A stretch of 64,000 nucleotides of DNA from Oligoflexales bacterium (GTDB taxonomy: Bacteria; Bdellovibrionota_B; Oligoflexia; Oligoflexales; Oligoflexaceae): assembly GCA_050251195.1 (NCBI GenBank), contig JBFWNG010000013.1, positions 15,331 to 79,330 of the forward strand, given 5' to 3'. Each line of letters opens with the position of its first letter. The stretch's first letter is position 1. The translations under genes and the position numbers were made by a program. Below are positions 2,059-10,411 of the stretch, piece by piece. Under the pieces are notes generated by a model. The model worked only from the letters and a program-made list of their open reading frames with translations, was not told the DNA's origin and ran no database searches.

Positions 2059-3330
2059 ATGATGAAGATATTGAGCAGGCAGGTAGTTTTCCTTTTCCTC
2101 GTTTTTGTCTCCCTTCAGGGCTGTGACAAGCAGGAAATGGGCATTCAGAGTGCGAGCGTAGCGAAAGCTGACGATACTCCAGCCCCACCCAAAGATCCTC
2201 CGCTTGTCATTACCCAGCACATAATGAAAAGAGGAACAACCGCTTACGACGCCATACGGTCCACAGGGTTGCCTCCGAAAACTGTGTACGAACTCCTAAC
2301 TATCGCCAAAGACGTTTCCCCTTTAGACAATCTAAAGGAAGGTACTATTTTCAAGGCTCTTTGGTCTGACCAAAACCAATCCGAACTCAAAAAAATCGTG
2401 GTAGAAAGAACGCCTACGGAAGATCTGGTGTTCGAGACAAACGGATTGAATTGGTATGCTACAACAGTCAAACACCCAGAAACGGTGGAGGTTGTTACCT
2501 ACACTAATGAAGTGGAAAACAGCTTATGGGATTCCGCAAGCGAAGTAGGAATGGATCACGTGTTGATCACTCAACTCGCAGAAATCTTCGCTTGGCAAGT
2601 CGACTTTAACCGAGAAGTTCGGAGTGGTGACCGCTGGCGGATCGTTGTTGAGAAGAGGGTCGCCAAAGGCCGCCAAGTAGGTTGGGGCAATATCTTAGCC
2701 GCAGAATATGAAAACCTGGGAGAAGTTTTCCAGGCAATCCGATTCCCGCAACAAGGTAGTCCGGCTTCGTATTATGAAGCTGACGGCTCAAGCATGCGCA
2801 AAATGTTTCTCAAGAGCCCGATGCGGTTTGGTCGTATCACTTCTCCTTTTACTGGGAAGCGATTTCACCCTGTGCTGAAGTACTATAGGCCGCATAACGG
2901 CGTCGACTATGCCGCTCCTGTCGGTACTCCTATCATGGCTGTCGGCGGTGGCAAGATTGTGGAAATCGGAACTTACGGCGCCCAAGGAAAGAAGATCACA
3001 ATCCGACACAATTCCGTATACAAGACCTCCTATCTTCATATGAACGGCTTTGCAAAGGGTCTTAAGAACGGCGCTAAAGTGGAGCAGGGGCAGATCATTG
3101 GTTACGTTGGTACCACCGGCTTAACCACTGGACCGCATCTGCATTTTGCGTTCTTTGAAAGAGGAGTTTATGTGGATCCGCTTGGGATGAAGTTTCCTTC
3201 AGCAGATCCTGTTGATGAAGATAAAATAGAAGACTTCAGAAAAATTACAGCTGCTGTTCTTGCTCTGCTTCCGGACTGGAAGGTTGCGAGTAACGACCGT
3301 ATCGTGCCGCGAGTTTTGGCGCCGAATTAA
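2059..3330 (+). CDS. M23 family (LytM-type) metallopeptidase lipoprotein, MepM/NlpD-like
   Basis: Lipobox SLQGC. Catalytic motifs HNGVDYAAPVGTPIMAV and GTTGLTTGPHLHFAF are present. The N-terminal region is OapA/LysM-like. Confidence 0.9.
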   Translation: MMKILSRQVVFLFLVFVSLQGCDKQEMGIQSASVAKADDTPAPPKDPPLVITQHIMKRGTTAYDAIRSTGLPPKTVYELLTIAKDVSPLDNLKEGTIFKALWSDQNQSELKKIVVERTPTEDLVFETNGLNWYATTVKHPETVEVVTYTNEVENSLWDSASEVGMDHVLITQLAEIFAWQVDFNREVRSGDRWRIVVEKRVAKGRQVGWGNILAAEYENLGEVFQAIRFPQQGSPASYYEADGSSMRKMFLKSPMRFGRITSPFTGKRFHPVLKYYRPHNGVDYAAPVGTPIMAVGGGKIVEIGTYGAQGKKITIRHNSVYKTSYLHMNGFAKGLKNGAKVEQGQIIGYVGTTGLTTGPHLHFAFFERGVYVDPLGMKFPSADPVDEDKIEDFRKITAAVLALLPDWKVASNDRIVPRVLAPN

Positions 3331-3665
3331 TGCAAACACTTTTGTGCTGACATTTCATCTGACGATTTGTCAGTCGCGGATACGCGCGTCGTTTTGCGTT
3401 TAAAGATGCAATAGTTCGCAACGTCATAAGCGTAGGGGTAAAACGATTGACCATCTTCAAGATAGACGATGGGTCCGTAGGTTACGCTGTCAGACGGACA
3501 AGAAGTTAATTCCCAGCAATCTCTTCCCAATTGATTAAGGTATTCGACGCTCATAGTTTCGGGAGTATTTATCACCTTCAGATACTCCCAAGATTGCGCT
3601 TGACCCGTCATTGATATGGATAGAGCGGACATTGCAAGTAGTAGCTTAAGAACTTTGTGCTTCAT
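3327..3665 (-). CDS. Small secreted protein, DUF4177-like
   Basis: Signal peptide (ALSISMTGQAQS). WEY...YLNQLGRDCWEL...IFKRK resembles the DUF4177 pattern. Convergent with the M23 gene, overlapping it by 4 nt. Confidence 0.5.
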   Translation of the reverse strand: MKHKVLKLLLAMSALSISMTGQAQSWEYLKVINTPETMSVEYLNQLGRDCWELTSCPSDSVTYGPIVYLEDGQSFYPYAYDVANYCIFKRKTTRVSATDKSSDEMSAQKCLH

Positions 3666-3729: not shown

Positions 3730-6570
3730 TTAACGTGTCTTTGGGTTGTTTGGCACTGTTGACGTTGGTGCGAACAGCGCGTTGCCTATTTTGAGCAGAT
3801 TGCCTTGCCAGCAGATGACTTGGGCTCCTGTGCAAGCCGGGATCGTGCCGCCAACGGAACCAATGTCGCTTGGGCCTGCAGGTCCTTGAGGTCCTGTTTC
3901 ACCTTGTGGTCCTCGCTCTCCTCGGTCGCCTTTCGGCCCTTGAGGTCCGGCTGGCCCAGCTGCACCTGTCTCACCGGCGACTCCTCGTTCACCTTTGTCG
4001 CCCTTGTCTCCTTTTGGACCTGGAACACCTTGAGGGCCAGCAGGTCCAATGTCGCCTTGCGCTCCTTTGACTCCTGCAGGTCCAACGTCGCCTTTTTCAC
4101 CCTTGGCTCCTTGTGGTCCCGCGTCGCCTTTAGCTCCTTGCAATCCGATGTCGCCTTTGTCGCCTTTAGCGCCGGCAGGTCCCGCGACTCCCCCAGGTCC
4201 TTGAGGTCCAGCAGCTCCTTGGTCACCCTTGTCGCCTTTTGGTCCCATTGCGCCCGCATCGCCTTTGAGGCCTTGTGGTCCAACTGCGCCCGTCGCGCCT
4301 TTTGGTCCAATCTCGCCTTGTTCACCTTTGTCGCCCTTTTCGCCTTTCAAACCTTGCGGTCCAGCATCGCCTTGATCGCCTTTAGGGCCTTGAGCTCCTT
4401 TAGCTCCCGCCGGGCCAACGTCACCCTTCAGTCCTTGCGGTCCTGCAGGTCCTGCGTCGCCTTTAGGACCCGCTGGTCCTACTTCGCCTTTCGGTCCTAT
4501 CGCGCCTTGAGGTCCAGCTTCACCGCGTTCGCCTTGAGGGCCGGCTTCGCCTTTTGGTCCTGCTGGACCAACTTCGCCTTTGTCACCCTTATCGCCCTTC
4601 ACACCTTGCTCGCCCTTTTCGCCCACTGGTCCTTTAGGTCCTTGAACTCCAGGGTCGCCTTTGGGCCCAACCTCGCCTTGCGGTCCGGTTTCGCCTTTGT
4701 CGCCTTTTTCGCCTTTTGGTCCTCTTTCGCCTTGCGGTCCTGGCGATCCGTCAGCACCGGGTATACCTTGCGTTCCAATCGGTCCGGTGGGCCCTTGAAT
4801 CCCTTGCGGTCCTCTAGGTCCGACATCGCCTTTTTCACCTTGTGGTCCGGTATCGCCTTTAGGGCCAATGTCGCCCTTGAGACCTTTTTGTCCTGGGGCT
4901 CCCGTGTCGCCTTTTGGTCCTGGGAGACCCTGTGCTCCCGCAGGTCCTTGAGGTCCCGAAGGTCCTTCCGGCCCAACGGCTCCTATTGGCCCTGCTTCCC
5001 CTTTTTCTCCCTTTTCGCCTTGCGGCCCGGCAGCGCCGACGTCACCTTTTTCACCTTTATCGCCTTGTGGGCCTTTAAGTCCTATATCGCCTTTTTCACC
5101 TTTTTCGCCTTGAGGACCTGCATCGCCTTTATCGCCTTTTTCACCTTTAGCACCTTGTGGTCCCACTTCGCCTTTTTCGCCTTGCGGTCCTTGAGGGCCA
5201 ATGGGTCCCACTTCGCCTTGCTCGCCTTTAGGTCCCGCAGGTCCTTTTTCCCCTTGCGGTCCATTTTCGCCCTGTGGTCCGCGTTCGCCCCTTGCTCCTT
5301 GCGGGCCTGCTTCGCCTTGCGGTCCTGCAGGTCCTATTTCACCTTTGTCGCCCTTTGGTCCATCTGGACCAGCCGGACCTTGTTGTCCTTTTTCACCTTG
5401 CGGCCCCCGTTCGCCTTGTGGGCCCTTCTCGCCTTGAGGTCCTCGCTCACCTTGCGGTCCGCGTTCGCCTTGCGGGCCGTTTTCACCTTTGTCGCCCTTT
5501 GGACCTGCGGGCCCCATTTCGCCTTTGTCACCCTTGGGTCCAACGTCGCCTTTGGGCCCTTGCTCACCCTGTGGTCCGCGTTCGCCCTTCGGGCCTATCG
5601 GTCCAACGTCGCCTTTAGGACCAACTTCGCCTTGTGGGCCTCGTTGCCCTGTTTGACCTTGAGGTCCGCGCGGTCCCTGAGGGCCCGCTAAACCTTGTAT
5701 ACCTTGCGGGCCGACTTCGCCCTGCATACCCAAATCACCTTTGTCACCTTTCGGTCCTGCAATACCTTGTGGTCCGCGGTCTCCGGCATCGCCCTTGTCT
5801 CCCTTAGGTCCTTGAGGGCCCAATTCACCTTGAGGTCCGCGCGGTCCTTGCGGTCCCATGGGGCCTTCTTTTCCGCCGCCGAAACCATTATAAATAGGAA
5901 CAATCTCTGTACGTCCCCCCGATGTTAGTTTTGCGCGGAGATCATTGAGAGGTTTTTCTTTCAGAGAATCAGGAACAGGAGCTTCGTCGCCAATGTAGAA
6001 TGCAAGTTTGCAAGTGTTGTCGACAATGACCTTGTGGATTTCTGGACCCCACAAAACTTTGGAACTGGCAGCGTCGACAATTTCTACTTTGTAGCTTTGT
6101 TGATTCCGGCACGTCACTGGACCACTGCCGCAGTCACAACTGCCTTTGACAAGGAGGCTTGCTTTACCTTGGTTCTGTTCAAACTTGTAGCCTTTGGCTT
6201 CGAGTTCTTCAAACCGGGCGTTTTCCACAATGCTTGGTTCGCCCGTATCGAGTTTGCCGTTTTGATTGAAGTCAATACCTAGGCTGACGCGGCCGTAATC
6301 TGGGTCGACGTCAACTTTGATGTCTCCTTTGATTCGTGTGCCGAATCGCGTCGCGAAAGACTTCAAATGGCTGATGTCAACGGATGGGTAAATTACCTCA
6401 CCCTCCTGCATGACGAGAATACGATATTGAAGATCATAGACGTCGAGGTCTTGAAATTCGTAATCAACCGAGAAACTCAGTTCGTCTGCAAGCACAGATT
6501 GCGAGCACAACATCGCGTACGCGAAAGCGCTCGCCGCAAAAAAATCATAAAGCCGCCTGAGATGTCGCAT
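3730..6570 (-). CDS. Secreted collagen-like (Gly-X-Y triple-helix repeat) protein, 946 aa
   Basis: Signal peptide, then a roughly 200-aa Cys-containing N-domain, then Gly at every third residue from aa 233 to 901, then a 46-aa C-terminal tail with two Cys. Confidence 0.9.
3868..5874 (-). repeat. Gly-X-Y coding repeat, about 223 triplets with no interruption found
   Basis: [15 protein letters not shown] triplets throughout. This periodicity also produces long stop-free antisense and off-frame ORFs in the track. Confidence 0.9.
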
Positions 6571-7008
6571 GAAAGCCGTCTCCTATCGTTCGAAAACTGA
6601 TTAAACTGCAAATGGAGGTACACATTTAGTCTAATGAAAAACCTTCTAAAAGCCTAGACGCGCAAGAAGGGCGGGCTAGGAAGAATGCTCCTATTGCTTC
6701 ACGAACAGAGATTTTTCGAATGGTTTTGGACAAATAGCGATATGTCAGAGCTGCTTAGATTAAGAAAAGATAAACTGACTCTAAACCCCTTAAAACATGA
6801 GTTCATTCATACGTCATTCTTACTTGCCCCATTGCAAAAAAATTACGCGGCGCAACTCCCGATAAAGGAAAGCAAAAGCCTAAGATTACTGGACAAATAA
6901 AAAAGTTCTTTGGGGATTTAACTTTTGTTTTTTTGATTCCGACAAACTGCCAGAGATAAACGGACCACAGGTAGTGGCCTTATTCACATTTTTAGTGGAA
7001 CAAAGACC

Positions 7009-9189
7009 ATGAAAAACATCTTTAAGCTTAAGACTCTTATTGCTACGTGTTTCATGTTTGTGAGCTGCGGCCGGGAAGCCGAGTTTGTCGATAACAAAGT
7101 CCCGGTTAAGGAGCTCACACCCGAGGAACAGGCCGACCTTGAGCGCTCGATTGCCAAAGACTTCACGGCAGGCAAAATCAATGATCAAAAAATCGACTTC
7201 GATACGGGATTCAATGCAATCACGCAGAAGCTGACCTTCACGACCGGCTTGCCTACGGAAGAAATGTTTTTCCAAACGACCAGAACGCCTGTTAAGGACG
7301 CCTTTGTCCAAGGTCATGTCGGTACTTCATTGACAGAAAACTTTGCGGTTAAAGAGAGGGGCTTACTCGACATCATTATCGTGATGGACAACTCTCATAG
7401 CATGTCGAGTATGCAGGCTAAGACCGCAAGCCAAATCGCCGGTTTGTTGGCAGAGATCAGGAACACCAATTGGCAAATTGGAGTGGTGACGACGGAATCC
7501 AGCCGACTGCGATCAGCTAAGACGAGCGCGGGCATGACGATAAATTATGTAACGAAGAAATTTTATGACGAGAATACGGTCGATGCGATGACGGCTTTTA
7601 GTGACATGCTCAACGCGGGCACAAGCGGGCACACGGTCGAACAAGGAATTTTTATGGCCCGCAAGGCGCTCGACGGCGAATGCTGGTATCTAGATCGCAA
7701 TACGCCAGACGGCAAGCAAGTGCGTTGCGATGCCGATGATGCCACCTGGCTTCGACCCGAAGCAAATAAAGCCGTTATCATTATTTCTGACGAGCGAAAC
7801 TGCGGCAGCATCGGTACAGGCGACCCGAATCCATGTGCGGGAAGGCCCGGCGAAACTGCCGATTACCTCCTCGACGGACTGCCGCTGACAACAGTTATTC
7901 ATGGTCTCTTGTTCTTGAAGAACGACGGGGAAGCTGCTGAAGATTACCGTACCGACACGCGATTTATTTGCGACCCGGATAAGACGGGCTCTAACGGCCA
8001 GCAAAGACCAGTTGAATATGAAAAAGCTATTGCAGCCCATGGCGGCGTGGTCGAGTATATCTGTAACGCTGACTATACCAGCATGTTGCGGAAAATATCG
8101 AGCAACATTAACGCGCACATCAGGAAGCAATACGAACTTACCTACACACCTGACCCTGGGTCTTTGGTTGTTAAAGTTGACGGAGTGGCGACAACGGATT
8201 TCGAAGTTAGAGGCAACATTCTTGAACTTAAAAGCGTGAGCGACGGTTCGACCAATCTCGACGTAAATTATAAGCATGGCGCCGTTCCCGTAGAGAAAAC
8301 CTTCGACCTTTCTACGCGCCCAGCCAGCGAGACGCTGCAAGTGACGATCAATGGTAGCCCGGCGAGCCCCATGAGTTTTAAACTCTTCGGACAAAAAGTT
8401 CAGTTCAACGATTATCCGCCGGAAAAAGCGACGATCGAAGTAAGTTATCGCAAAGACGAACCACTCATCGATAAAGTAACGACTTCGTCGCAGTTTGCGG
8501 ACCATACTATTAAGATATCCGTTGCTGACAAACCATTTTCTGATTACACCGCGGACGGCTCCACACGTCTCGTGCAGTTCACTAAAGTTCCCAAAGACGG
8601 GGATGCTATCGTGATCAGATATCTCAAACCGTCTGACTTGCAAACGCGATATCCCGTCAACGTTGACCATACGAAAATAGAGGGAGTAACGGTGGTTGAC
8701 GATGTTTCTGGGGGCGATATATCCGCCGTGATTGAGGGGACGGAGATTGTTTTCCCAATGGAAGCTGTTGTTAACGACAGAAAAGTATCTGTCAGTTACG
8801 ACATGCAGCATTTGGGTGATGAGTTGAAGTTTTCCGTACCCTTAGCGGTTCCAGTGCTGGACGAAAAGGTGGATGTGTTTGCGGACGGGGGGCAATCGCG
8901 TTGCCAAAACATTATCGAGCTAACGTCCGAAAAGATAGGCATCCAATGTGAAGATGATGACGTCAAATTGTTGTCCGTCGAATATCAATACGTTACTGAG
9001 TATACCAATACGTTCACGATGGAAGGCGAGTTTCTCGATAGAAAAGTTTGGACTGTATTCGTGAACGACAAACTTTATGAGAACTACACGCGAACAGAGA
9101 ATACAATCACTATACCGGAAGAAGACTTGCCGCTCGGCGCGCGAGTCAGAATTCTCGTTGAGCCGGCGCCCGAGAATATTCGGGAGTAA
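7009..9189 (+). CDS. Lipoprotein with an N-terminal von Willebrand factor A (VWA) domain with MIDAS motif and a long beta-rich C-terminal region
   Basis: Lipobox FVSCG. The DxSxS motif is in IIIVMDNSHSM, followed by NAGTSGHTVEQG and AVIIISDERN, the pattern typical of VWA MIDAS. Confidence 0.8.
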   Translation: MKNIFKLKTLIATCFMFVSCGREAEFVDNKVPVKELTPEEQADLERSIAKDFTAGKINDQKIDFDTGFNAITQKLTFTTGLPTEEMFFQTTRTPVKDAFVQGHVGTSLTENFAVKERGLLDIIIVMDNSHSMSSMQAKTASQIAGLLAEIRNTNWQIGVVTTESSRLRSAKTSAGMTINYVTKKFYDENTVDAMTAFSDMLNAGTSGHTVEQGIFMARKALDGECWYLDRNTPDGKQVRCDADDATWLRPEANKAVIIISDERNCGSIGTGDPNPCAGRPGETADYLLDGLPLTTVIHGLLFLKNDGEAAEDYRTDTRFICDPDKTGSNGQQRPVEYEKAIAAHGGVVEYICNADYTSMLRKISSNINAHIRKQYELTYTPDPGSLVVKVDGVATTDFEVRGNILELKSVSDGSTNLDVNYKHGAVPVEKTFDLSTRPASETLQVTINGSPASPMSFKLFGQKVQFNDYPPEKATIEVSYRKDEPLIDKVTTSSQFADHTIKISVADKPFSDYTADGSTRLVQFTKVPKDGDAIVIRYLKPSDLQTRYPVNVDHTKIEGVTVVDDVSGGDISAVIEGTEIVFPMEAVVNDRKVSVSYDMQHLGDELKFSVPLAVPVLDEKVDVFADGGQSRCQNIIELTSEKIGIQCEDDDVKLLSVEYQYVTEYTNTFTMEGEFLDRKVWTVFVNDKLYENYTRTENTITIPEEDLPLGARVRILVEPAPENIRE

Positions 9190-9247: not shown

Positions 9248-10411
9248 TTATTTCGGGGGATTCGCGGGTTCTTTACATTTCTCTAACTGGCTCTGAAGAC
9301 AGAACGGGATAACAAGGATCTTTTCTTCTCCAGCAAATGGATCTGAGTAAATTGGATCGCATTTCTTGTGCTTGTATTTCTTTTTCTTATTATACTTCTT
9401 GTTGAAGTCGTCTTCGTCTTTATACTTATCCTTATATTTGTCCTTATTGAAGTCGTCTTCGTCTTTATACTTATCCTTGTATTTGTCGTTATTGAAGTCA
9501 TCATCGTCTTCGTCTTTATACTTATCCTTGTATTTGTCCTTATTGAAGTCGTCTTCGTCCTTATACTTATCCTTGTCCTTGTATTTGTCGTTATTGAAGT
9601 CGTCATCGTCTTCGTCTTTGTATTTATCGCCATGGAAGTCGTCGTCGTCTTTATATTTATCATTCATAAAGTCGTCGTCGCCGTCCTTATAGGTATCGTC
9701 GGTATAGTAATCATGATTGTCGCCATGGTCACCGTCTTCATCTTCATAGCAATAGTCTTCGTCGTAGTCCTTGTCTTTGTCCTTGTCGTATTTGTGATCT
9801 TTATCTTTGTATTTATCCTTATTGAAATCCTCGTCACTGTCATTTTCTTGATCGATCAAGAGCTGTGCGCTTTCTTCGTCGGTAACAATGCGTCCCGTTG
9901 GAAAGACTTCGATGGGGACGGGGCCGCAAGGCTTCAAGTCGACAATCTTTTCGCCCTTGCGTTGTTTGAATACAAAACTAACGTCGAGATGAATTCCTTC
10001 TCTAAACGAATCGAGCCGCATTTCCACGTTGGAGTAATCGTCGAAGTTACGGTTAAAGAATCCGGTGGACGTAAAAAGATTGAGTTGCGGATCGTAATGG
10101 ACGCGATGCGGAAAAGTTGGCGTCAAATTGTGCCCGTTGCCGTTAAGTCCTTCGACCGGCATCACAAAGTCCGTGTTCGGGATGAGATGTTTATTGAGTA
10201 TCAGGGTGATGCACGGATGGAACTTTGCAACGTAGACGCCGATTTGAGGCAGCTCGGCAATATAGTTATCTGGAATCTCGTTGGGATTGTTGGGAACGAA
10301 GCTGTTATTAGGCTCTGCAGGTTTGATAACCGTGTTGTTTTTCTCTTTGGTGCAGGAGAAGGTAAGACTGCAAGCTACTAATAACCCTGAAATTATGACT
10401 TTTCGTGACAT
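9248..10411 (-). CDS. Lipoprotein with a C-terminal Asp/Lys/Tyr-rich tandem-repeat region
   Basis: Lipobox LTFSC. The first ~170 aa after the signal/lipobox peptide have normal composition. About 200 aa then consist almost only of D, K, Y, E, N and F, with repeats of FNKDKYKDKYKDEDD. The C-terminal tail contains Cys. Confidence 0.75.
   Translation of the reverse strand: MSRKVIISGLLVACSLTFSCTKEKNNTVIKPAEPNNSFVPNNPNEIPDNYIAELPQIGVYVAKFHPCITLILNKHLIPNTDFVMPVEGLNGNGHNLTPTFPHRVHYDPQLNLFTSTGFFNRNFDDYSNVEMRLDSFREGIHLDVSFVFKQRKGEKIVDLKPCGPVPIEVFPTGRIVTDEESAQLLIDQENDSDEDFNKDKYKDKDHKYDKDKDKDYDEDYCYEDEDGDHGDNHDYYTDDTYKDGDDDFMNDKYKDDDDFHGDKYKDEDDDDFNNDKYKDKDKYKDEDDFNKDKYKDKYKDEDDDDFNNDKYKDKYKDEDDFNKDKYKDKYKDEDDFNKKYNKKKKYKHKKCDPIYSDPFAGEEKILVIPFCLQSQLEKCKEPANPPK
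9402..9690 (-). repeat. Tandem coding repeats of 45/51 bp
   Basis: Units start at 9402, 9447, 9492, 9543 and 9594 (TTGAAGTCGTCTTCGTCTTTATACTTATCCTT...). The first four are near-identical and later ones are degenerate. Confidence 0.85.

Follow-up and report, generated by a model that had tools for sequence, protein, structure and literature searches.

The feature under study lies on the minus strand of the window, by which we mean the whole 64,000-nucleotide stretch of DNA that was analysed. At 3730-6570 (minus strand) there is a complete coding sequence for a collagen-like protein of 946 amino acids, with an ATG start and a stop codon at 3730-3732. Read from the sequence, a Shine-Dalgarno-like AGGAG is present at 6580-6584 (minus strand), with the ATG 9 nt downstream. 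In scans at the gene, a sigma-70-like promoter was not found, and terminator-like sites occurred at background level only. Downstream lies a 112-aa ORF that has no homologue in 21 related genomes (0 found), and on this ground it was rejected as a conserved partner.

Residues 1-28 (6487-6570, minus strand) form a signal peptide, recognized from the sequence and a hydropathy profile, with a hydrophobic core, VLA at positions -3 to -1 and a predicted SPase-I site between VLA and DE. The AF2 model places a helix at residues 3-21 within the signal peptide, and the signal peptides of homologues have an equivalent site between SGSAWA and ED (alignment A1). The cysteines of the protein are at positions 22 (in the signal peptide), 145, 147, 154, 187, 913 and 920. 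The original prediction described a signal peptide followed by a Cys-containing N-domain of about 200 residues, and both were borne out.

A script found a single run of 223 uninterrupted Gly-X-Y triplets at residues 233-901 (3868-5874, minus strand), as expected from the approximately 223 unbroken triplets originally claimed, and the protein matches the Pfam Collagen model (PF01391) with E 2.7e-107. There is one glycine in the Y position (GPG-GVA), a minor irregularity in the triplet run. At ~0.286 nm per residue, the 669 residues give a predicted rod of ~190 nm, which agrees with the length first proposed.

Collapse of the repeat or a frameshift had been named as something to check, and we found neither. 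The longest exact direct repeat in the 2 kb of collagen DNA is 22 nt, the repeat units reported by TRF are only 62-88% similar to one another, and the reading frame is unbroken across the 2 kb. Comparison with an independent Logan contig (run SRR27751816) showed 8,423 nt of identical sequence, with the same 946-codon gene called on it. The possibility that the repeat length is an assembly artefact, whether a collapse or a chimera, is raised by the homologous gene in one related genome (G007), which is interrupted by a 100-N scaffold gap within the collagen region, so such genes can be difficult to assemble. Because the longest exact repeat here is 22 nt and the independent contig is identical, however, collapse of the collagen region is unlikely, and we consider an artefact of either kind very improbable. 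In an exact-sequence look-up in a protein collection, the 946-aa protein was absent and the proteins of its neighbours were present. We conclude that the gene at 3730-6570 (minus strand) is genuine and intact and specifies an exported collagen-like protein.

Within the 223 triplets, the X position is occupied by Pro in 91 cases, Glu in 48 and Asp in 39, and the Y position by Lys in 65, Gln in 56 and Ala in 31, with Pro in only 6. The commonest triplets are GPQ (40), GPK (22), GDK and GEK (15 each), GPA (14) and GER (9). KGE and KGD are described as kinetic clamps of triple helices (PMC11923368). We observed 56 KG[E/D] motifs compared with 25.2 +/- 3.4 expected from 5000 shuffles, and the observed number was reached in 0/5000. 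A prolyl-hydroxylase-type domain (PF13640) was not found in the organism's own genome, which is 94% complete; because no hydroxylase of this type was found and Y-position Pro is so scarce, there appears to be no route to hydroxyproline. The excess of KG[E/D] and the scarcity of Y-position Pro thus support, at the level of sequence, the charge-stabilized and hydroxyproline-free design that had been proposed. The occupation of 41% of X positions by Pro and the 2.2-fold enrichment of KG[E/D] would favour triple-helix formation.

The N-domain consists of two predicted beta-sandwiches. Sub-domain 1 (residues 29-117; 6220-6486, minus strand) was delimited from the AF2 model and profile cross-matches, and had a mean pLDDT of 79-90 per 10-residue block over residues 31-110, in an N-domain model of moderate confidence overall (pLDDT 74). 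Sub-domain 2 (residues 136-227; 5890-6165, minus strand), delimited from the AF2 model and alignment A1, adjoins the collagen region and contains a LWGPE motif and the invariant cysteines C145, C147, C154 and C187. These four cysteines, together with D100 and N102, are the invariant columns of the family in the nine sequences of alignment A1. An EF-hand-type loop at residues 100-111 (6238-6273, minus strand) was identified by a regex match to the canonical loop pattern and in the same alignment. A direct Pfam match of the N-domain to SdrD_B (PF17210) was not found. Over its positions ~58-116, the family profile cross-matches multi-repeat proteins of the SdrD_B, SpaA and CarboxypepD_reg kinds. 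The AF2 model and these cross-matches suggest a remote similarity of sub-domain 1 to Ca-binding sandwiches of the SdrD_B and CNA-B types, and the N-domain probably binds Ca2+. In some paralogues sub-domain 2 alone precedes the collagen region, with matches at profile positions ~130-237.

Foldseek of the N-domain against the PDB returned only generic tandem Ig-like matches with E of at least 0.007 and TM of about 0.2, none of them significant, and HMM searches of PDB sequences with the N-domain and C-domain profiles returned nothing meaningful. A word-indexed protein search with the N-domain gave no matches, a null result that reflects a limit of sensitivity, because profile and genome searches did find the family.

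The family N-domain profile gives E 6.8e-86 for the gene itself and found homologues in 27 other genomes. Like its homologues, the protein has a signal peptide and a two-sandwich N-domain with the six invariant residues, directly before the collagen region. Of 17 genomes sampled from the same family, 15 have the N-domain, as do some genomes from four sister families (f4, f13, f14 and f15), whereas a search of 33 genomes from another family of the same class (f17) did not find it. The domain is rare: searching 1.84 billion representative proteins with the profile gave 107 matches, of which about 50 (clusters) are genuine; the three sampled (P0004, P0006 and P0025) all have a collagen region. 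One member (G013) comes from Oligoflexus tunisiensis Shr3, a cultured organism with at least 3 genes of the family, and the other named matches are from Oligoflexus or Oligoflexaceae MAGs, the organism names having been obtained by a search with a four-sequence alignment (A2) of closely related Oligoflexus-type relatives. Oligoflexus is a genus described as filamentous. In the literature searched, a link between collagen-like proteins and either Oligoflexus or Bdellovibrionota was not found. Judged from these searches, the collagen-like family is confined to Oligoflexaceae and to a small number of sister families in its order, within Bdellovibrionota.

Genomes with the family have several paralogues, and their rod lengths are very different, with 36-372 uninterrupted triplets in Oligoflexaceae homologues. 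The fibre had originally been called unusually long. This description stands in comparison with the characterized Scl, BclA and Lcl proteins, but not in comparison with homologues from the same bacterial family that have 124-372 uninterrupted triplets, and long collagen runs are normal within this Oligoflexus-like family. Prokaryotic collagen-like chains in general reach up to about 2000 triplets (PMC11923368).

After the last triplet comes a C-terminal tail of 45 residues (902-946; 3733-3867, minus strand), which corrects the 46 first given. The tail contains a Cys-bracketed hairpin at residues 913-935 (3766-3834, minus strand). In alignment A3, both hairpin cysteines are invariant, a Leu is nearly invariant, and a GxLLKIG motif is aligned. 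The tail had no Pfam or PDB match. Across the family, the last triplet is directly followed by one of two modules. Class a is the 14-residue, heptad-like or coiled-coil-like QDLxDILRRLxALE, and class b, the kind present in this protein, is the Cys-x(7-10)-Cys hairpin. Because two interchangeable modules occupy one position, a role in chain registration or nucleation fits. The terminal domains, left unassigned in the original prediction, are no longer wholly so, since the N-domain defines a lineage-restricted family and the tail is a conserved hairpin module.

Most class-b paralogues carry a beta-sandwich head of ~90 residues after the hairpin. The AF2 model of one relative has short strands at 20-23, 26-29 and 32-34 after the Cys pair, followed by the beta-sandwich, with pLDDT 90, and Pfam gave no match on the C-domains of the relatives. 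The head is absent from the protein studied here, whose tail matches profile positions 1-50 only, and a head-like sequence was found nowhere else in its genome. The head-less tail could mean that this copy has been truncated and that its function has changed or been lost. By this account a deletion removed the head and left a decaying or disabled copy, in which the ORF stays open and the job of the family is lost. The closest syntenic homologue, that of G007, shares the order M23, collagen, VWA, htpG and retains the hairpin and a roughly 105-aa head, and the orphan 112-aa gene lies where the head would be expected. However, 223 triplets over 2 kb with no frameshift and no Gly substitution are unlike neutral decay. 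The salt-bridge bias is strong throughout the rod, and the RBS and signal peptide are intact. In other members of the family, including the paralogue in the same genome and those with class-a tails, the protein likewise stops where the collagen region does or shortly beyond it. We consider a decayed copy quite improbable.

The head of the relatives is similar in fold to phage proteins, which are uncharacterized or annotated as tail fibre or collagen-like (E about 1e-4, TM 0.5-0.57), and its matches to a P1 baseplate chain and a pyocin fibre were weak. Phage tail fibres often contain collagen-like segments (Rasmussen et al. 2003, as cited in PMC11923368), and collagen-like tail fibres resemble the class-b relatives in that a small beta-rich tip accompanies the collagen stalk. 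The gene could be a collagen-like tail fibre derived from a phage or tailocin and left in a prophage remnant. Yet its neighbours are cellular (recJ, an M23 peptidase, htpG and lipoproteins), synteny at the locus extends to another genus, and the PHROGs gave no match for the N-domain, the tail, the head of the relatives or the downstream ORF. In addition, the protein carries a Sec signal peptide, a feature absent from virion fibres, and it has no tip. A phage origin is highly improbable, and we continue to regard the gene as one for an exported cellular protein.

We compared the protein with characterized collagen-like systems. Like Scl1/Scl2 (SclA/SclB), it is exported and has a globular N-domain followed by an uninterrupted, hydroxyproline-free and charge-rich Gly-X-Y stalk. 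Scores with the NCBIfam SclB and SclA models were 578 and 424 bits, above their cut-offs, with matches that cover the collagen triplets only. Unlike Scl1/Scl2 (NF038330 / NF038329), it has no LPXTG, and the tail ends in VPNNPKTR without a hydrophobic segment. The V-domain of Scl proteins is helical, whereas the AF2 model here is an all-beta pair of sandwiches and not of the V type. The stalk is also roughly three times longer, and the host belongs to the Gram-negative phylum Bdellovibrionota. We conclude that the 946-aa protein is not an Scl member, and automatic annotation would probably misname it.

Bacillus BclA and the exosporium nap proteins are likewise collagen-like filaments in which triplet number sets length, with a trimer being the predicted form here, and trimerization of BclA is probably driven by a C-terminal module. 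The C1q/TNF-like head, the GXT-rich glycosylated triplets and the exosporium-targeting N-terminus of BclA are not present in our protein, which instead has GPQ, GPK and G[ED]K triplets, no head, a different N-domain and no Pfam domain besides Collagen.

Legionella pneumophila Lcl is also a Gram-negative collagen-like protein with a signal peptide and no membrane anchor, and it exits the cell by type II secretion. The NCBIfam Lcl model (NF046116) scores 513.6 bits against a cut-off of 500, with a best-scoring stretch, model positions 57-252 of 431, that falls in the collagen repeats (residues 377-569). The Lcl-type C-terminal domain is absent here because the 45-aa tail is too short. The 946-aa protein was found to have neither a lipobox nor LPXTG, and neither a beta-barrel nor a C-terminal sorting domain, that would anchor it or direct it across the outer membrane. 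By analogy with Lcl, type II secretion is a possible route. Three secretins were found in the organism's own genome, and, in a further difference from Lcl, GspL was not detected there.

Divergently transcribed from the collagen-like gene is a gene for a probable lipoprotein of 726 aa (7009-9189, plus strand), with a lipoprotein signal in which FMFVSC precedes G, and a VWA domain that gave a weak Pfam VWA_2 match. A motif search located the MIDAS motif DNSHS at residues 127-131 (7387-7401, plus strand). In resemblance to the MIDAS/VWA surface lipoprotein adhesins Bdellovibrio Bd0875 (PMC11003981) and Myxococcus CglB (PMC9946355), it combines the lipoprotein signal with a VWA domain in which DxSxS is intact and with additional C-terminal domains. 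The NCBIfam model for the Bdellovibrio MIDAS-adhesin gave 62.5 bits against a cut-off of 700, so the 726-aa lipoprotein is not an equivalog. A text search of the Bd0875 paper (PMC11003981) returned no mention of collagen, and among the papers listed by our search of the MIDAS/VWA literature there was no mention of a collagen-like protein.

The distance between a collagen-family gene and a gene for a VWA lipoprotein homologue of roughly 720 aa is 365-1,833 bp in 13 genomes and 3.5-7.1 kb in 3 further genomes (16 genomes in total). The pairs occur in both divergent and tandem orientations and in four families. By our own estimate, such a pair within 2 kb would be expected by chance at about 1-5% per genome. 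The M23 and htpG genes are syntenic only in G007, so the pairing is independent of context. The VWA family was found in 28/28 genomes with the N-domain, and in 63 of 121 genomes compared with 28 of 121 for the collagen family; because it is so much wider, the VWA lipoprotein cannot be a dedicated partner everywhere. Part of the conservation of the pair may be inherited synteny, since related genomes are not independent. These patterns make the 726-aa lipoprotein a candidate partner of the fibre. A more specific proposal is that the two form a receptor-ligand or anchor pair, in the manner of an integrin I-domain on collagen. The Glu/Asp of G-x-x-G-E/D-K/R would complete the MIDAS metal coordination, the lipoprotein would tether the 190-nm fibre to the outer membrane or link cells, and the couple would have been inherited across Oligoflexales. 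We offer this proposal tentatively and consider it unlikely.

Taken together, we favour with moderate confidence a model in which an intact, Sec-exported collagen-like protein forms a homotrimeric fibre of ~190 nm that works with the MIDAS/VWA lipoprotein. The signal peptide would be cleaved after VLA28. The Cys-bracketed hairpin right after the last triplet would bring three identical chains into register, and the 223 triplets would zip into a homotrimeric triple helix of about 190 nm. Pro, at 41% of X positions, and about 56 salt-bridge motifs between chains (Lys-Gly-Asp/Glu) would stabilize this helix, and hydroxyproline would have no part in it. At the opposite end, the fibre would carry three copies of the two-beta-sandwich, disulfide-containing and probably Ca2+-binding N-domain. 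The fibre would act with the divergent MIDAS/VWA lipoprotein, which would most likely hold or bind it at the cell envelope, and outside the cell the two would make up a system of fibres for adhesion or spacing. We infer the extracellular location of this putative surface fibre, and trimerization, the nucleation site, a physical interaction with the MIDAS protein and an adhesion function are likewise predictions of the model.

The same molecule could also have a structural role, as a matrix, sheath or spacer fibre that holds or spaces the cells of a filament, with MIDAS lipoproteins as cross-linkers. Such a role is consistent with the filamentous habit of Oligoflexus, to which the named relatives belong, with the presence of several paralogues of 36-372 triplets per genome, and with the lack of a distal binding head on this copy. 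The phage-fibre-tip-like head on most class-b relatives, however, suggests ligand recognition, and we identified no self-assembly or cross-linking motifs. We consider the structural role unlikely and retain the model of an exported fibre that works with the lipoprotein.

Research on bacterial collagen-like proteins is concerned with them both as adhesins and as collagen scaffolds, free of hydroxyproline, for use in biomaterials. The family described here provides natural, long, uninterrupted and charge-clamped stalks, of 223 triplets in this protein and up to 372 in relatives, from a non-pathogenic Gram-negative lineage with a cultured type strain. If the tail modules nucleate folding, they would be useful tags, and they would also offer a natural test of the chaperone-free folding of very long helices, which has been raised as an open question (PMC11923368). 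Further, the repeated pairing with MIDAS/VWA genes suggests a prokaryotic collagen-MIDAS interaction, in which the lipoprotein would be a candidate collagen-binding partner.

The ORF at 3730-6570 on the minus strand encodes a 946-aa collagen-like protein, with AGGAG 9 nt 5' of its ATG. Its first 28 residues, followed by DE, read as an SPase-I signal peptide, and inspection of the protein sequence found neither a lipobox nor an LPXTG motif. A script identified residues 233-901 (nt 3868-5874) as one unbroken Gly-X-Y run of 223 triplets, and the protein matched Pfam Collagen with an E-value of 2.7e-107. The original observation of a signal peptide, an N-domain of about 200 aa and about 223 uninterrupted triplets is confirmed; the C-terminal tail also exists, at 45 rather than 46 aa. 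The GC content of the collagen region is 58-60% compared with ~47%, because of its Gly and Pro codons.

An assembly artefact is an unlikely source of the repeat, because the longest exact direct repeat within the 2 kb of collagen DNA is 22 nt, TRF detected only degenerate periodicities (9-63 nt, 62-88% matches), and 8,423 nt of a Logan contig (run SRR27751816) match without a difference. The same 946-codon gene is called on this second assembly, which speaks against repeat collapse. The degenerate periodicities resemble duplications that are old and have diverged. A collection of 15 billion proteins reportedly lacks the exact 946-aa sequence, though neighbouring proteins are present and the gene is called on the Logan contig; our guess is that low-complexity proteins were filtered out.

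The X position of the run is occupied mainly by Pro (91), Glu (48) and Asp (39), and the Y position by Lys (65), Gln (56) and Ala (31), with only 6 Pro. Lys-Gly-Asp/Glu motifs, which according to a passage in PMC11923368 clamp the chains to one another by salt bridges and slow unfolding, occur 56 times, compared with 25.2 +/- 3.4 expected when the X and Y residues were shuffled; none of 5000 shuffles reached 56. The bacterium's own genome, 94% complete, yielded no hydroxylase of the PF13640 type. With Y-position Pro nearly absent and no such hydroxylase found, the composition implies that triple-helix stability must rest on X-position Pro and charge pairs, in agreement with the predicted hydroxyproline-free stabilisation.

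This protein exceeds the curated cut-offs of the NCBIfam equivalog models SclB and SclA (Gram-positive) and Lcl (Legionella). The best-scoring stretch of each match is confined to the triplet region, so automated annotation would probably misname it. The protein is a collagen-like stalk protein that works in the same way as Scl, Lcl and BclA, but it lacks their defining anchors and terminal domains, and we reject its membership in those families.

A word-indexed protein search with the N-domain gave no matches. Of 21 genomes from this taxonomic family searched in six frames, 20 hold homologues that include the N-domain, mostly as several paralogues each, and a scan of named genomes placed the collagen family in Oligoflexus tunisiensis Shr3 and in Oligoflexus or Oligoflexaceae MAGs. 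An N-domain profile detected the domain in 15/17 sampled genomes of the same family, in sister families of the order (f13, 7/12; f14, 3/22; f4, 1/3; f15, 1/1), and in 0/33 genomes of another family of the class (f17). Among 1.84 billion representative proteins the profile gave 107 matches, of which about 50 are genuine, and the three genuine representatives sampled all have a collagen region. The other matches are multi-repeat SdrD_B, SpaA or CarboxypepD_reg proteins, aligned at profile positions ~58-116. We conclude that the domain architecture is lineage-restricted.

Full-length relatives carry 36-372 unbroken triplets (for example 372, 286, 285, 278, 269, 222 and 200), and therefore 223 is normal in this family. 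The description of the fibre as unusually long holds against characterised proteins and fails within its own family. A passage in PMC11923368, citing Qiu et al. 2023, puts the upper length of collagen-like chains in prokaryotes at about 2000 triplets. A second paralogue in the same genome (L006, C5:230441-231388; N-domain identity 28%) has 36 triplets and no tail, stopping right at the collagen end.

In an alignment of nine N-domains, identity to the collagen protein is 21-28%, and G82, D100, N102, C145, C147, C154, E177, C187 and G194 are invariant. AF2, given the family alignment, models the previously unassigned N-domain as a pair of beta-sandwiches, residues ~29-117 and ~136-227, with a mean pLDDT of 74. 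Foldseek with this model returned generic tandem Ig-like matches (pilins, ICAM, Fab fragments), none significant. Residues 100-111 of sub-domain 1 form a canonical 12-residue EF-hand-type loop, kept in relatives as DWNxSGxxDxxE; this loop, together with the SdrD_B cross-matches, suggests a putative Ca2+-binding stalk-type sandwich. The four invariant Cys all lie in sub-domain 2, which shorter paralogues retain beside the collagen region.

Across the family, two alternative modules abut the last triplet, and we regard both as candidate registration modules. Class a, 'QDLxDILRRLxALE', is heptad-like and 17-29 aa long, and class b is Cys-x(7-10)-Cys-x2-G-x-LLK-[IV]-G-x3-[FY]-x-P followed by a head of ~90 aa. 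AF2 models the head of class-b relatives as a confident beta-sandwich (pLDDT 90). It resembles phage proteins that are uncharacterised or annotated as tail fibre/collagen-like (E about 1e-4, TM 0.5-0.57), and matches the P1 baseplate chain and R2 pyocin fibre only weakly. The collagen protein carries the class-b hairpin (23 residues) and ends 11 residues later, so that the tail, also unassigned before, is a class-b Cys hairpin without its head, matched in relatives. No head-like sequence was found downstream of the gene or elsewhere in the 94%-complete genome. The closest syntenic homologue, in G007 of the nearest genus (M23 peptidase, collagen gene, VWA gene, htpG), keeps the head, which makes it probable that lacking the head is the derived state. 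A 100-N scaffold gap (L046, G007:C33:14211-14310) splits that homologue inside its collagen region and hides the total, which is at least 195 triplets. Downstream of the collagen gene, after a gap of 64 nt, comes an orphan ORF of 112 aa (3327-3665, minus strand) whose product has a signal peptide of its own and several Cys. There is a 4-nt overlap between the end of this ORF and the stop of the M23 peptidase gene, which converges on it. Searches of 21 related genomes turned up no homologue of the ORF, and Pfam and PHROG gave no match.

Divergent to the collagen gene, 7009-9189 on the plus strand encodes a probable 726-aa lipoprotein with a VWA domain and an intact MIDAS motif (DNSHS, residues 127-131), which matches the Bdellovibrio MIDAS-adhesin model weakly (62.5 bits, cut-off 700). 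A VWA homologue and a collagen-family gene lie 365-1,833 bp apart in 13 genomes and 3.5-7.1 kb apart in three more; by our own estimate, about 1-5% of genomes would have the two genes within 2 kb of each other by chance. The pairs, divergent and tandem, occur in three other families as well as in 7/8 sampled genera of this bacterium's own family (g7 has none). M23 peptidase and htpG, the flanking genes, are syntenic in G007 only, so the pairing is independent of its surroundings. Each of the 28 genomes that have the N-domain carries the VWA family too, which is the wider of the two (63/121 genomes); G006, the sole same-family genome without collagen-like genes, has only a distant VWA match. 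Because these genomes are related and non-independent, the conserved pairing inferred from gene order is a strong association, not proof.

Where the two genes were examined in tandem (G010, G012, G013 and G014), they are separated by the gene for a small lipoprotein. In genus g6 (Oligoflexus-type) it encodes 221-293 aa (L065 788-1453; L066 2956-3636; L064 2892-3773; L067 2833-3711), two of these products ending in an EF-hand-like 'DTNxDxxxSxGDE', and it may supply a third component that the window's locus lacks. Just past the VWA gene, a lipoprotein (9248-10411, minus strand) has Asp/Lys/Tyr-rich tandem repeats (...DKYKDKDK...) in its C-terminal half. Bdellovibrio (Bd0875, PMC11003981) and Myxococcus (CglB, PMC9946355) are known to have surface MIDAS lipoprotein adhesins. 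Searching the text of the Bd0875 paper for collagen gave nothing, and none of the papers listed by a search of the MIDAS/VWA literature mentioned a collagen-like protein.

No sorting signal for outer-membrane crossing was found in the collagen protein; its genome has three secretins, and no GspL was found there. In the mechanism we propose, the chain would be exported by Sec and its signal peptide cleaved, three chains would be registered at the C-terminal hairpin, and they would zip into a salt-bridge-clamped homotrimeric rod of about 190 nm. The other end would display three Ca-binding, disulfide-containing N-domains, and the fibre would associate with the MIDAS lipoprotein at the envelope. 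Taken together, what was originally observed is confirmed and its interpretation stands only in part: what makes the locus valuable is its gene pair and the candidate nucleation modules, and length is not the unusual feature.
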